A stretch of DNA of 32,185 nucleotides from Patescibacteria group bacterium. Its GTDB lineage: Bacteria > Patescibacteriota > WWE3 > UBA101185 > UBA10185. Under the pieces are notes generated by a model, which saw nothing but the letters and a program-made list of their open reading frames with translations, searched no databases and had not been told where the DNA came from. The translations under genes were made by a program, and so were the position numbers. Location: the NCBI GenBank assembly GCA_042571445.1, contig JBHPFT010000003.1, positions 1-32,185 on the forward strand, written 5' to 3'. Below are positions 14,074 through 18,377 of the stretch, one piece after another (position 1 is the first letter of the stretch; each line of letters begins with the position of its first letter).

Positions 14074-14604
14074 ATGTCTCCGAAACTTAAAATTAAGATT
14101 AAATCTGTAGTAGTGCTACTTTTGTTTGTTCTTATCCCTATTTATTCCCTTGGTGCCTCCCTTTCATTAAATAGGATAGGTTCTTTAGACCTAGATGGAA
14201 AAACATATAGTGAGTGGTGGTATACAGGCTCAAAACCAACATTTTATGGTACAGCAGTTGAATCTTCTTCAGTTACGGTATCTGTAGATGGTACTGAAGC
14301 TACCACAACTGCAGATGCATCTGGAAACTGGACATATTATTTGAATAAAGATCCTGGAGATTATGCAATAGTTATAACCCAAGGATCAGAAAGCTACTCT
14401 TTTACACTTCACCTAGGGCAAAGTCTCCCTAATGGATCCGTAGAGTCAACAGAAGCTACTTCATCGGTTCCAGAAACAGGCATTGATCAATACATGGCAT
14501 TAATGCTTGGAGTAGGAATAGTACTTTTAGCTACCTATTTTTACATCTCAGGTGATTCGAACAGAAAAGCAGTATTTGAAACCAGAGTTCTAAAAGAAGA
14601 TTAG
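14074..14604 (+). CDS. secreted surface protein with bacterial Ig-like domain and LPXTG-like (VPETG) sorting signal
   Basis: N-terminal signal peptide, PTFYGTA...TADASGNWTY Ig-like pattern, Ser/Thr linker, then VPETG, a hydrophobic helix and a charged tail. The ORF-track TTG start at 14029 is the -35 hexamer. Confidence 0.75.
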   Translation: MSPKLKIKIKSVVVLLLFVLIPIYSLGASLSLNRIGSLDLDGKTYSEWWYTGSKPTFYGTAVESSSVTVSVDGTEATTTADASGNWTYYLNKDPGDYAIVITQGSESYSFTLHLGQSLPNGSVESTEATSSVPETGIDQYMALMLGVGIVLLATYFYISGDSNRKAVFETRVLKED

Positions 14605-15218
14605 TCTTCTACAAAAGGTACAAATGCGAAACTTCCATGCTCTTCTCTTTTGAAGTCATTTTTGTATGTCTTTTCTTCTCTAACAATATTCCATCTCTGA
14701 GGATAAACCATTACACCATTGATCTTTAGTTGGTTCCTCCATACTTTAGGAACACTTCTAACATCTGCAGATACGAGTATTCGATCGAGTTTCGTATTGG
14801 GAATTCCATTTTTTGCACTCTTACAAAAAAGCTCAGACCTTTTTAGTAGTTTTGGATACTTTTTCAAGTTGGTTTCTCCTACGTCACATAGTTCAGGAAC
14901 TATTTCAAAGGAGTACACCCTACCCTTTTCTCCAACAAGGTGAGATAGGAGTGCAGTAACCCATCCAGATCCATATCCTACTTCCATTACCACATCTCCT
15001 GGAAAAACATTTAAAAGTTCAAGCATAAAAGTAACTGTATATGGTTGAGAGATAGTTTGTCCTCTTCCAATTGGCAAAGCATCATCTACATATGCATAAT
15101 CTGAATATTTTTCTGGTATAAAATCTTTTCTATCTACGTATAAAAGGGCCTTCTCAATACTTTCTGATCTTAGAATACCCCTATTTTTTAGATGCTTAAC
15201 CAGGTTTTTGTTACTCAT
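14601..15218 (-). CDS. pcm: protein-L-isoaspartate O-methyltransferase
   Basis: VDRKDF, AYVDDALPIGRGQTISQPY, EVGYGSGW, FAFVPF. Confidence 0.93.
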   Translation of the reverse strand: MSNKNLVKHLKNRGILRSESIEKALLYVDRKDFIPEKYSDYAYVDDALPIGRGQTISQPYTVTFMLELLNVFPGDVVMEVGYGSGWVTALLSHLVGEKGRVYSFEIVPELCDVGETNLKKYPKLLKRSELFCKSAKNGIPNTKLDRILVSADVRSVPKVWRNQLKINGVMVYPQRWNIVREEKTYKNDFKREEHGSFAFVPFVED

Positions 15219-15705
15219 TTAGTTTTATCTCACATAAAATCCTATATCTTTTATCCTCAAAATTAGGAATAGACTCAAAAAGAGCAATCTTATCTATACT
15301 AACCTTCCAGTTAATGTCTTGCTGACTAAAGATTGTATTCTCATTAACTGATCTTGCTAGAGTAACATGCGGTAGTAACTCTCTTTTACTTGTAGTGCTT
15401 ACAAAGACACTTTTTAATTTCTTTTCCATTTTTAATATAGAAGAGTTTTCGGGACCAATAGCCGTAATAATCTTTCCCCCCTTTTGGATAGTTGTTAACA
15501 CTACGTCCATAATAGAAAACATATTGTTAAACATTTTTAATTTTTCGATTTCGCCCTCAACATTTTCAGTTTTCCACGGTGGGATTAGTGTTATATGAAG
15601 ATCAGAAGGATTTAACCACTTTGCTTTTATACCTTTATGTTTTTCCTGAAAGGAAAGATAGTAAGATTCTATGTTTGTTACTGGAATTCCGATAAAAATT
15701 CTCAT
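15211..15705 (-). CDS. thpR: RNA 2',3'-cyclic phosphodiesterase (2H phosphoesterase)
   Basis: MRIFIGI start, two HxT motifs (LHITL, PHVTLAR), LFES near the C-terminus. Confidence 0.88.
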   Translation of the reverse strand: MRIFIGIPVTNIESYYLSFQEKHKGIKAKWLNPSDLHITLIPPWKTENVEGEIEKLKMFNNMFSIMDVVLTTIQKGGKIITAIGPENSSILKMEKKLKSVFVSTTSKRELLPHVTLARSVNENTIFSQQDINWKVSIDKIALFESIPNFEDKRYRILCEIKLNE

Positions 15706-16100
15706 GAATTTCTAATTTTCTCTGCAAGTTTTTCTAGTTCTTCCTGAGATGGTTCTTTATGCCCACTTTCTGATATTTCTCTGAGTGACTTTCCGTGTGA
15801 TGGAAAAAGTTTATAGTGAAAATGAGCTACATCTATTCCCTCAATCGCTAAAAACACCCTTTCTGAGTCTAGAGCTCCCTGAATCATTTTAGCTACCTTA
15901 TTTGCAACCTTTATACCTCCTGCTAAAATCTCTGTGTCTGTGTCAGGGAGGTTTGATTGAGCATGTTTTTTAGGAATAACTAGCGACTGTCCTTCAGAGA
16001 GGGGTCGAATATCAAGAAAGGCTAGATAGTCATCGTCTTCATATACTTTCTGACAAGGTATCTCTCCAGCAACTATTTTACAAAATATACAATCTTTCAT
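15702..16100 (-). CDS. HIT family nucleotide hydrolase
   Basis: DCIFCKIVAGEIPC.KVYEDD..LAFLDIRP...G..LVIPKKH; variant triad HFHYK. Confidence 0.9.
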   Translation of the reverse strand: MKDCIFCKIVAGEIPCQKVYEDDDYLAFLDIRPLSEGQSLVIPKKHAQSNLPDTDTEILAGGIKVANKVAKMIQGALDSERVFLAIEGIDVAHFHYKLFPSHGKSLREISESGHKEPSQEELEKLAEKIRNS

Positions 16101-16102
16101 GC

Positions 16103-16744
16103 TTAAAGTTTACCAAAAACTAGGTATTCATTAGTATTATCTTCTCTAAATTGGTCTAAAAGCTTCAAATTTGCCTTCTCGTAGCGTTTTATTATCTTAT
16201 TTAGCTCTTTTCCGCTGTATTGATGGCAGAATCTAATAGCATCTTTCCTGTCCAAAGAGTCACTTAGGTAGTTTCCTGGATCATCTTTAAAATCCCAAAA
16301 TGTTAAAACTAGTATCCCTTTTCTATTTAGTAAATCTACAAGTGATAGGAACCACTTTTTGCGGAAATATTTATCTGGAATATGATGAGTCACTCCAAAA
16401 GCTACAATTAAATCAAACTTATCTTGAATTTCTTTAAGATCGGAAAATACATCTATATTGAAAAACTTATCATTTCCATATTTCTTTCTAGCTACATCCA
16501 AGACATCGTTATTTATGTCTAAACCAACGTATTTAATATCTGGAAACTTCTGAGAAAGATATTCGTAAAATCTTCCGTCTCCACAACCAAGGTCTAAAAC
16601 ACTCATCTCATCATTTTTTATATGTTTTACTGCCCTATCCCATCCTTTCCATGGTTTGTTAAAGGTTTCAGCAAACTTTTTACCCATCTGTTGGTAAAAT
16701 TTTTTATTTAAGTTTATTATTTGCTTAATGCGTTTTTCGTCCAT
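16103..16744 (-). CDS. class I SAM-dependent methyltransferase, Trm9/ALKBH8-like
   Basis: VLDLGCGDGR motif I; FY....KFAETFNKPW N-terminal motif; FDLIVAFGVTHHIP and G.LVLTFW resemble Trm9-type motifs. Start placed at ATG 16744. Confidence 0.8.
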   Translation of the reverse strand: MDEKRIKQIINLNKKFYQQMGKKFAETFNKPWKGWDRAVKHIKNDEMSVLDLGCGDGRFYEYLSQKFPDIKYVGLDINNDVLDVARKKYGNDKFFNIDVFSDLKEIQDKFDLIVAFGVTHHIPDKYFRKKWFLSLVDLLNRKGILVLTFWDFKDDPGNYLSDSLDRKDAIRFCHQYSGKELNKIIKRYEKANLKLLDQFREDNTNEYLVFGKL

Positions 16745-18377
16745 AAATGAAAATAAAGAGATTCTAGTTGATATTATCTCAAAAATTGCATCATTAGAGA
16801 ATCCAAGACATGAACAGGTAGCTAGTATCATTTCTAAAAACCCTGATATTACAGGTAATCTTTTTTCTAAAAAAGATGTACTCCAAGCATATAGGCAGTT
16901 AAAGAAGGAAATTAATCTAGATCCAGTAAAAGAAAAGGTATTTCTTCAAAGAGTAAAGATAAGGAAGGTAAGAACAATATCTGGAGTAACTCCAGTAACT
17001 GTACTCACTAAACCATATAAGTGTCCTGGAGGGTGTATTTATTGTCCTTCCGAGAACGGTCTTCCTAAAAGTTACCTATCTTCAGAACCTGGTGCACAAA
17101 GAGCTGTAGCAAATAAGTTCCATCCATATCTTCAAGTATTTAATAGACTAGTTGCATATAAAAACATTGGGCATCCTACAGAAAAGATAGAACTAATTGT
17201 TCTTGGGGGTACGTGGTCGTATTACACAAAAGATTATCAACGATGGTTCATTATGAACTGTTTTAAAGCAATGAATGACTACAACGGTCAAACTGAACCT
17301 ATTGATGTATCTACTTATGAAGATAAAGAGCAAAAGACTTCCTGGGAGGACTTATTTAGTGAACAAAAGATAAATGAAACCACTCAAAGTAGGTGTGTTG
17401 GTATGTCTTTGGAGACAAGACCAGATTATGTAACCAAAGAAGAAGTAGAGAGAATGAGAAAGCTAGGAGCAACAAAAGTTCAAATAGGTGTTCAAACTCT
17501 AAGTAATAAGATACTTCGGATGAATAATAGAGGTCACACTGTAAAAGATACTAAGAATGCATTTGATTTACTGCGACTCGCAGGTTTTAAGATTCAGGCA
17601 CACTTCATGCCCAATCTTTATGGAAGTAATCCATCAAAAGATATTTCTAATTTCAAAAAGCTGTTTAGTAGGAAATTTAGACCAGATGAGTTAAAGATTT
17701 ACCCCTGTTCTTTAATAGAAGGGACCGATCTCATGACATTAAGAAGAAAACATCTATGGGAGCCCTATTCTGAAGAGACCTTATCTTACGTTTTAGAAAA
17801 CCTACTTATGCTTGTTCCTAGGTATTGCAGAGTAACTAGAGTAATCAGGGATATTTCATCTGATGATATTGTGGAAGGTAATAAAAAGACTAACTTTAGG
17901 CAAATTGTTGAAAAGAAGTTAAAGGAAAGAAATCTACACCCTAAAGATATCAGATATAGGGAGATACGAGGAGAGGAAGTTAATTCCAATGAGTTATCTC
18001 TGAAGATAACAAAATATAAAACAGTAGTATCTGAAGAGATATTTCTAGAGTATCTAACAAAAGAAGATAAAATAGCAGGGTTTCTAAGGCTGTCTTTACC
18101 AACTAAGGAGAATTTCTTAGAAGAACTTAAAGATTGCTCAATCATCAGAGAAGTTCATGTGTATGGACAATCTCTAGAATTAGGTTCTCAGAAGTTGGGA
18201 AAGGCTCAGCATACTGGATTGGGGACTAAACTAATAAAGGTAGCTGAAAAAATATCAATAGATAAGAAATTTAAACAGATCTCAGTAATATCCTCTGTAG
18301 GAACAAGGAAATATTACGATAAGTTTGGCTATATTTTAGGCAGCCTTTATCAAACCAAGAACTTACTCACACCCTAG
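16728..18377 (+). CDS. elp3: Elp3 tRNA uridine(34) carboxymethyltransferase (radical SAM + GNAT)
   Basis: RTISGVTPVTVLTKPYKCPGGCIYCP (CxxxCxxC), PKSY...EPGAQRA, GGTW, ETRPD, HFMPNL, PDELKIYP, IREVHVYG, QHTGLG, VISSVGTRKYY. TATTAT lies 7 nt before the ATG. Confidence 0.93.
   Translation: MRFSSINENKEILVDIISKIASLENPRHEQVASIISKNPDITGNLFSKKDVLQAYRQLKKEINLDPVKEKVFLQRVKIRKVRTISGVTPVTVLTKPYKCPGGCIYCPSENGLPKSYLSSEPGAQRAVANKFHPYLQVFNRLVAYKNIGHPTEKIELIVLGGTWSYYTKDYQRWFIMNCFKAMNDYNGQTEPIDVSTYEDKEQKTSWEDLFSEQKINETTQSRCVGMSLETRPDYVTKEEVERMRKLGATKVQIGVQTLSNKILRMNNRGHTVKDTKNAFDLLRLAGFKIQAHFMPNLYGSNPSKDISNFKKLFSRKFRPDELKIYPCSLIEGTDLMTLRRKHLWEPYSEETLSYVLENLLMLVPRYCRVTRVIRDISSDDIVEGNKKTNFRQIVEKKLKERNLHPKDIRYREIRGEEVNSNELSLKITKYKTVVSEEIFLEYLTKEDKIAGFLRLSLPTKENFLEELKDCSIIREVHVYGQSLELGSQKLGKAQHTGLGTKLIKVAEKISIDKKFKQISVISSVGTRKYYDKFGYILGSLYQTKNLLTP

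Follow-up and report, generated by a model that had tools for sequence, protein, structure and literature searches.

Can a bacterium modify its wobble uridine by the two-enzyme route of archaea and eukaryotes? The question is raised by a gene pair in the 32,185-nucleotide stretch of DNA analysed here (the window), which derives from a Patescibacteria group bacterium (contig JBHPFT010000003.1). One gene encodes Elp3, a radical-SAM and GNAT/KAT protein that carboxymethylates tRNA at uridine 34 (U34) (16728..18377, + strand, 549 aa; SAM, S-adenosylmethionine). The other, divergent from it, encodes a Trm9-like class I SAM methyltransferase of 213 aa (16103..16744, − strand). The chemistry of Elp3 is established: radical SAM and acetyl-CoA are used to place a carboxymethyl group on C5 of U34, giving cm5U, whose methyl ester is mcm5U. 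A preliminary description of the sequence had proposed that the pair makes mcm5U in two steps. Its observation is confirmed and its interpretation partly supported. We consider it probable that the two genes form a bacterial counterpart of the Elp3-Trm9 pathway by which archaea and eukaryotes modify the wobble uridine, with a methyl step that is probably weakened or retuned in this genome.

Elp3 and a putative bacterial relative of Trm9

The window Elp3 is complete. It scores 487.5 bits against TIGR01211 (cut-off 350), contains the Pfam domains Radical_SAM and Radical_SAM_C, and aligns through residues 68–544 to archaeal Elp3 (6IAZ, 318 bits) and through residues 81–546 to Dehalococcoides Elp3 (5L7J, 309 bits). 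The alignment runs to the ends of the solved chains, the QH.G.G acetyl-CoA region included, and the radical-SAM cysteine triad is present (CPGGCIYC, aligned with archaeal CPHGKCIFC). All three cysteines of the linker zinc motif are missing: residues 402–413 (17931–17966) read NLHPKDIRYREI in the window and GLRCRCIRCREV in the archaeal chain. Among 80 aligned bacterial Elp3 proteins that adjoin the methyltransferase (loci L003–L112), 68, the window's included, have none of these cysteines, 6 have one and 6 have all three. This differs from the account of the Dehalococcoides mccartyi enzyme (DmcElp3), whose linker zinc cysteines are described as strictly conserved in bacteria and archaea in the accessible part of PMC6367351.

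The genes lie head to head and, with the start codons as we read them in the sequence, their 5′ coding ends overlap by 17 nt (16728..16744, both strands). From its first ATG the methyltransferase frame would span 16103..16831 (− strand, 242 aa). We chose the ATG at 16744 because it gives the N-terminus common to the family in alignment A1 (below). A complete radical-SAM and GNAT Elp3, divergent from and overlapping a 213-aa methyltransferase, is thus what the locus encodes, as first described, and the motifs quoted at that time (FY....KFAETFNKPW, VLDLGCGDGR, FDLIVAFGVTHHIP and LVLTFW) are all in the translation.

The methyltransferase had been likened to Trm9 and ALKBH8, and at family level a profile comparison bears this out. 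Relatives number 53 in a word-indexed protein collection; in an exhaustive library the count of cluster representatives is 1,748 at E ≤ 1e-10, falling to 68 at E ≤ 1e-30. Alignment A1, made from 39 family sequences (profile length 218), has the consensus FYQ..x..FSxTRQxPWKGW ... VLDLGCGNGRF ... GxDIN ... FGVTHHIP ... LTFW ... GDYLxGW ... RYCHxYS ... D..N.Y. Searched against the PDB, the A1 profile finds Trm9 (5CM2 chain Z) at E 3.8e-12, second of 108 matches, over positions 42–214 of 218. The first match, an uncharacterised archaeal methyltransferase (3DTN, 1.3e-13), covers positions 22–151 only. Among the 60 matches listed, 5CM2 alone extends past profile position 197, into the C-terminal motifs.

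The alignment with 5CM2 allowed family residues to be mapped onto yeast Trm9 (chain index + 35 gives Yarrowia/yeast numbering, checked on four residues; mutant data from the accessible part of PMC4678810). D76 corresponds to yeast D72, H120/H121 to H115/H116, W150 to W145, W163 to W168, R171 to R241 and D202/N205 to D270/N271. The crystallised construct lacks the N-terminus, where Y17, F24 and R28 of the family have spacing identical to Y18, F25 and R29 of yeast as given in the same source. Alanine mutants at R29, D72, H116, W145, W168, R241, Y243 and N271 are reported there as impaired. Seven of these eight positions are conserved in the family, Y243 being the exception. When 253 family members are aligned to the A1 model, the mapped signature residues are retained in 236–251 of them. 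The D76 column has Asp in 248 and Glu in 5, and the window copy has both VLDLGCGDG and the Asp of GLD76. H120, H121 and W150 (each kept in 251) are present in the window copy, as are R171, D202 and N205 (251, 236 and 249).

Because the 5CM2 match spans the C-terminal motifs and the activity-requiring residues map onto it, we conclude that the family is a putative bacterial Trm9 homologue, beyond a generic Methyltransf_11/25 enzyme. It would share the class I SAM fold with the Yarrowia lipolytica/yeast Trm9-Trm112 complex (5CM2) and with the methyltransferase domain of ALKBH8, both of them cm5U34-5-O-methyltransferases. Also in common are the N-terminal Y...F-S-x-T-R-x-x-P-W motif at identical spacing, the HH, two Trp, Arg and D..N residues at positions required for activity, and a genetic partnership with Elp3. 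Public annotation reflects this in part: automatic annotation by JGI names five members TRM9 (P0040, P0048, P0197, P0227, P0244), other sources mostly use 'class I SAM-dependent methyltransferase', and a search of the ESM Atlas returned generically named methyltransferase clusters only. A profile search of a large protein collection gave family members only among the matches listed. No AlkB or RRM fusion was seen in the family. A search for longer proteins found neither an ALKBH8-like protein nor an Elp3-methyltransferase fusion nor an AlkB/RRM fusion, an absence that is weak evidence; its top matches were fusions of a methyltransferase with a WecB/TagA glycosyltransferase, with 65–71% of the query covered.

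Linkage to Elp3 and the wider modification machinery

The preliminary description had asked for Elp3-methyltransferase linkage beyond this contig. It is found at three taxonomic depths. In the class sample (60 relatives plus the window genome; methyltransferase orthologue at E < 1e-20), the methyltransferase occurs in 24 of 61 genomes and Elp3 over the cut-off in 27, and all 24 are Elp3-positive. The genes are divergent neighbours in 23 of the 24, the other (G026) having them on different contigs. Three genomes have Elp3 but no orthologue of the methyltransferase. In G048 and G050 no methyltransferase lies within the flanks. In G016, from a sister genus, an intact Elp3 stands beside a methyltransferase remnant (L114; G016:C4, 1397–1921, − strand; 89.5 bits against the family HMM, query 110–211), which consists of the C-terminal half only, without the SAM-binding half.

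The phylum sample is an even sample of 200 genomes plus the window genome, scored by an A1 profile match at E ≤ 1e-25. The methyltransferase was found in 62 of the 201 and Elp3 over the cut-off in 85. The dependence runs one way: Elp3 accompanies the methyltransferase in all 62 genomes, and no match to the methyltransferase was seen in any of the 116 Elp3-negative ones. By coordinates, 46 of the 62 pairs are adjacent and divergent, 4 are divergent at 0.8–2.8 kb, and 12 are unlinked, of which six belong to a single family whose assemblies are fragmented. Four genomes of one phylum family (f20; G093, G117, G140 and G162; 0.9–1.6 Mb) each have two methyltransferases of the family, both located on contigs other than that of Elp3.

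The loci of 22 of the 23 Elp3-positive genomes without an A1 match were fetched, and four have a weaker divergent family member (69.6–112 bits). With these adjacent copies counted, the family methyltransferase was not found in at least 18 of the 85 Elp3-positive genomes. Among the remaining 18, the 13 Elp3 neighbours scanned are unrelated genes or have no Pfam family (NDK, MPG, SLOG, TP_methylase and others). At one locus (L119; G187:C17, 4834–5265, + strand) a fragment resembling an Asn_synthase or PP-loop amidotransferase (Pfam, 76 bits) is divergent from Elp3 at a contig end, which hints at possible amidation of cm5U to ncm5U. No amidotransferase-type Elp3 neighbour was seen among the 13 others scanned (21 other methyltransferase-less loci fetched).

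Across phyla, 80 named loci, one genome per species, were searched by tblastn with the window Elp3 over 4-kb flanks. They come from Patescibacteria, Chloroflexota (Anaerolineae, Caldilineae, Phototrophicaceae), Deltaproteobacteria/Myxococcales, Spirochaetes, Limisphaerales and others. In 60 of the 80, a full Elp3 on the opposite strand lies directly upstream. Partial matches occur at two more, L057 (at a distance of 3.5 kb) and L060 (truncated where the contig ends), and in 18 no Elp3 was found within the 4-kb flanks. All 85 Elp3-methyltransferase pairs whose arrangement was examined are divergent; the −17 spacing of the window recurs in the same-genus genome G001, and start-to-start spacing, by extrapolation, is −38 to +60 nt in many relatives. 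Because related genomes do not count as independent observations, we give no p-value for the linkage. It extends over many families and several phyla, and the pairing is far beyond chance.

The window genome (494 kb, 33 contigs) is 72% complete, and negative searches in it are to be read with that figure. Within it, MnmG was not found, nor MnmE beyond a 25-bit P-loop match. MnmG is found in 0 of the 61 class genomes. It occurs in 11 of the 201 phylum genomes, none of which has Elp3. Five large genomes of other phyla (2.9–6.9 Mb) that encode the methyltransferase all have Elp3, and MnmG was found in none of them. The two systems thus never occur together in the 201 phylum and five large genomes, as the earlier proposal that Elp3 and its partner replace MnmEG would predict; how far this carries is taken up below. 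MnmE/MnmG, the cmnm5U/mnm5U route, acts on the same tRNA set as Elp3 and likewise at C5 of the wobble uridine, by unrelated enzymes and chemistry.

Trm112 had been noted as missing from the window, and a search of the whole genome, at 72% completeness, likewise did not find it (PF03966). Two further counts bear on the suggestion that the methyltransferase is Trm112-independent. Trm112 is over the cut-off in just 3 of 61 class genomes, each time inside a frame of 308–329 aa. Four of the five large genomes of other phyla have a Trm112-like domain somewhere. One of the class frames, of 329 aa, is in G001 (G001:C7:915-1472; Trm112 domain 42.7 bits); those of G007 and G034 are similar and 308 aa long. 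The G001 frame also has a weak methyltransferase match, and we therefore take it for a fusion with a different class I methyltransferase.

A bacterial-type MnmA is present in the window genome (350.5 bits). Aragorn finds 25 tRNAs there, 11 with U34, including Arg-UCU, Gly-UCC, Lys-UUU and Gln-UUG. The same genome (G000) encodes a tRNA-Ile with the anticodon UAU and one tRNA-like gene with a four-base anticodon (G000:C13 for the tRNA observations). TilS (TIGR02432) was not found in this genome, barring an 18-bit match on MnmA. AUA may here be read by a U34 tRNA instead of by lysidine.

The atypical methyltransferase of the window

Two residues set the window copy apart. At the position of yeast R29 it has Phe28 (codon TTT, 16661..16663, − strand) and at that of W168 it has Ser163 (TCT, 16256..16258, − strand), both placed by codon and family alignment. 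The R28 column of the 253 aligned members has Arg in 247, Lys in 1 and a gap in 4, and the window copy alone has Phe. In the W163 column Trp prevails (237), followed by Phe (12) and Arg (1), two members being gapped there, and the window copy alone has Ser. In yeast Trm9, R29A leaves ∼5% of specific activity and W168A is inactive, according to the accessible part of PMC4678810. The Phe had been offered as a caveat from the start. The caveat is real, since TTT is in frame, and more serious than was claimed: the substitution is unique among 253 and the Trp is missing as well. These atypical residues are the new point of the present analysis. More broadly, of 35 columns with conservation of 90% or more, the window copy departs at four (R28F, N56D, D158N, W163S). 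The family median is 1 and the 95th percentile 4, and its four nearest relatives (59–65% identical) have 0 departures.

The missing R29 and W168 equivalents and the four departures weigh against an intact route to mcm5U in the window bacterium, and they are joined by several points that bear on the family or the pathway. Taken alone, the window protein is a poor match to Trm9: an NCBIfam scan gave generic matches and no family over the cut-off, and 5CM2 chain Z appears in the PDB search at E 2.8e-4, in the 27th row, the best match being 3DTN. At the Y243 equivalent the 253 members mostly have Cys (160), then Val (52) or Ala (18), with Tyr in 3 only (the alignment may be off by one). The methyl step appears dispensable, since G016, G048 and G050 keep Elp3 without the methyltransferase. 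The window genome is incomplete. As many as 105 of the 201 phylum genomes have neither Elp3 nor MnmG, which makes the argument for replacement of MnmEG weak. Finally, our literature search found neither biochemical nor tRNA mass-spectrometry data for pair-bearing bacteria.

The most serious alternative is that the window methyltransferase is catalytically dead or decaying. Elp3 would still work and the pathway would stop at cm5U or another derivative, as in the relatives that have Elp3 only. The sole Phe at R28 and the sole Ser at W163, the impaired or inactive yeast mutants R29A and W168A (PMC4678810, as above), and the four departures at conserved columns, where the median is 1 and the nearest relatives have none, all point this way. 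So do the remnant beside the intact Elp3 of G016 and the 18 or more Elp3-positive phylum genomes in which no family methyltransferase was found. Against it, the gene has an unbroken reading frame, keeps all other signature residues and preserves both its conserved 17-nt overlap with Elp3 and the operon downstream. Nor is there clear acceleration: relative-rate tests on the window-copy branch show a slight excess of changes, with 2 of 24 comparisons at p < 0.05, uncorrected. As a whole the gene is intact and shows no obvious decay, but it has lost two residues linked to substrate binding and catalysis. We regard a dead enzyme as unlikely, though the explanation has to be taken seriously.

Less probable, in our view, is that the family is tied to Elp3 but methylates a different substrate or atom, such as a further Elp3-derived side chain, some other position in tRNA or the Elp3 protein. 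In favour of this, the family does not conserve the Y243 equivalent, searches mostly failed to find a Trm112 partner, the best PDB profile match is the uncharacterised archaeal 3DTN, and most of the associated Elp3 proteins lack the zinc-Cys motif, so that the bacterial system would differ in detail. However, 3DTN covers profile positions 22–151 only, not the C-terminal substrate motifs, and the family retains all but one of the eight positions at which mutation impairs yeast Trm9, with F-S-x-T-R-x-x-P-W at identical spacing.

It is very improbable that the two substitution clusters are metagenome assembly errors in a gene that is really a normal family member. In favour of such errors, each change lies within a run of about six altered residues that are conserved in the closest relatives. 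An independent copy of the sequence was not found: metagenome contigs searched for the exact 27 bases spanning the Phe28 site gave no match, which leaves the unusual codons without independent confirmation, and no public sequencing runs or RNA data are listed for the window sequence. Codon comparison with G001, on the other hand, shows both sites to be in-frame substitution clusters of equal length, and elsewhere the gene reads without fault, as do the genes next to it. A compensated frameshift was considered at each site. At Phe28 there is no frameshift reading and no alternative frame restores the Arg motif, and the idea was rejected; at Ser163 it is weakly possible, the shifted frame reading Leu-Trp. 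That a generic class I methyltransferase lies beside Elp3 by chance is scarcely credible: its Pfam domains (Methyltransf_12/23/25/31/11) and NCBIfam matches are indeed generic and its relatives mostly bear the public name quoted above, but the idea is contradicted by divergent adjacency across phyla (60 of 80 loci) and one-way co-occurrence (62 of 62 against 0 of 116), and the Trm9-specific motifs are present.

We therefore return to an Elp3-Trm9 pathway in which the window methyltransferase is atypical. Elp3 would make cm5U34 in the window organism. The family methyltransferase would most likely methyl-esterify cm5U34 to mcm5U34, apparently without a recognisable Trm112 partner, and the MnmA of the same genome could add a 2-thio group. 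For the family, a route to mcm5U that is probably Trm112-independent is well supported by sequence and genome context. For the window copy, Phe replaces the Arg predicted to position the carboxylate and Ser the Trp predicted to stack on the substrate, in a gene that is otherwise intact, which suggests that the second step is weakened or retuned. Such impairment is plausible, since the relative G016 has lost the methyltransferase and kept Elp3. With Phe and Ser both unique among 253 members at the R29 and W168 matches, activity of the window methyltransferase is doubtful. The claim that this bacterium uses a two-gene U34 system thus stands as to the presence of the pair; completion to mcm5U is doubtful with the Arg and Trp equivalents uniquely missing, and the genome is 72% complete. 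We class the window protein as a Trm9-like variant, atypical within the bacterial family associated with Elp3, and do not count it as Trm9 proper, because two defining catalytic residues are missing and the Trm112 partner was not found.

Gene neighbourhood, known systems and implications

A promoter-like site (TTGGTA-18-TATTAT, 16691..16720, + strand; consensus match) ends 8 nt upstream of the Elp3 ATG, within the methyltransferase coding sequence. It is weak, since three such sites are observed in the region against 8.8 expected from shuffles. Downstream of the methyltransferase, after 2 nt, a HIT-family gene (15702..16100, − strand; Pfam HIT, 51.7 bits) heads a tight minus-strand run of HIT, LigT-like and PCMT genes. 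Together the methyltransferase, HIT, the LigT-like 2H phosphoesterase and the PCMT protein-repair methyltransferase (14601–16744, − strand), with a 2-nt gap or 4–8-nt overlaps, look like one operon. HIT, LigT and PCMT were rejected as members of the module, as they follow the methyltransferase in just 19, 2 and 8 of 104 loci. Beyond the genus HIT alone of the three recurs there, and at 19 of 104 loci its adjacency is local synteny only.

The closest precedent is archaeal. In Haloferax volcanii, mcm5U in vivo depends on Trm9 and Trm112 (PMC6144793); elp3 and trm9 genes cluster in Sulfolobus solfataricus (PMC6144793, PMC2584109), and the archaeal Elp3-Trm9 prediction dates to 2008 (PMC2584109), each according to the accessible parts of these papers. 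Like the archaeal system, the bacterial one has a stand-alone Elp3, without Elp1, 2, 4, 5 and 6, and clusters the Elp3 and Trm9 genes. It differs from the archaeal pair in its tight, divergent and often overlapping genes and in its thiolase, a bacterial MnmA and not Ncs6/Tuc1. Haloferax Trm9 needs Trm112 for solubility and activity; a recognisable Trm112 was not found in the window genome or in most class relatives. Relative to yeast Trm9, the family has Cys or Val at the Y243 equivalent and the window copy the Phe and Ser described above.

DmcElp3 (5L7J), the characterised bacterial Elp3, belongs to the same enzyme family as the window protein. In the accessible part of PMC6367351 it is called a rare bacterial example, bacteria are described as users of MnmE/MnmG and a bacterial Trm9 partner is not mentioned; there and in the corresponding part of PMC13315578, on bacterial and archaeal Elp3, Trm9 appears for eukaryotes or in references only. 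According to the portion of PMC6144793 at hand, mcm5U-type wobble modification has been shown for eukaryotes and archaea only, and nothing is known about orthologues of Trm112 in bacteria. The consulted portions of PMC8879553, PMC10849945 and PMC5699542 hold nothing relevant. A bacterial Trm9 homologue or a bacterial Elp3-Trm9 pair was not found in the full-text literature searched, though supplements might list homologues.

In its widest form, the proposal is that Patescibacteria, Chloroflexota, Deltaproteobacteria/Myxococcales, Spirochaetes and others make mcm5U34 (with MnmA, perhaps mcm5s2U34) by means of Elp3 and a Trm9-type enzyme in place of MnmE/MnmG, with Trm112 unneeded in small genomes, and that the lineage of the window is losing or retuning the methyl-ester step (Arg to Phe, Trp to Ser). 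We put this forward tentatively, as a possibility we rate just short of an even chance. If it is true, a sizeable part of bacterial diversity, including the 85 Elp3-positive genomes among the 201 of the phylum sample, would decode split codon boxes with archaeal/eukaryotic chemistry, and a naturally Trm112-free Trm9 would be available for mechanistic work. The pathway hypothesis is directly testable by established assays, and the window copy is itself a natural double mutant at two residues characterised in yeast.

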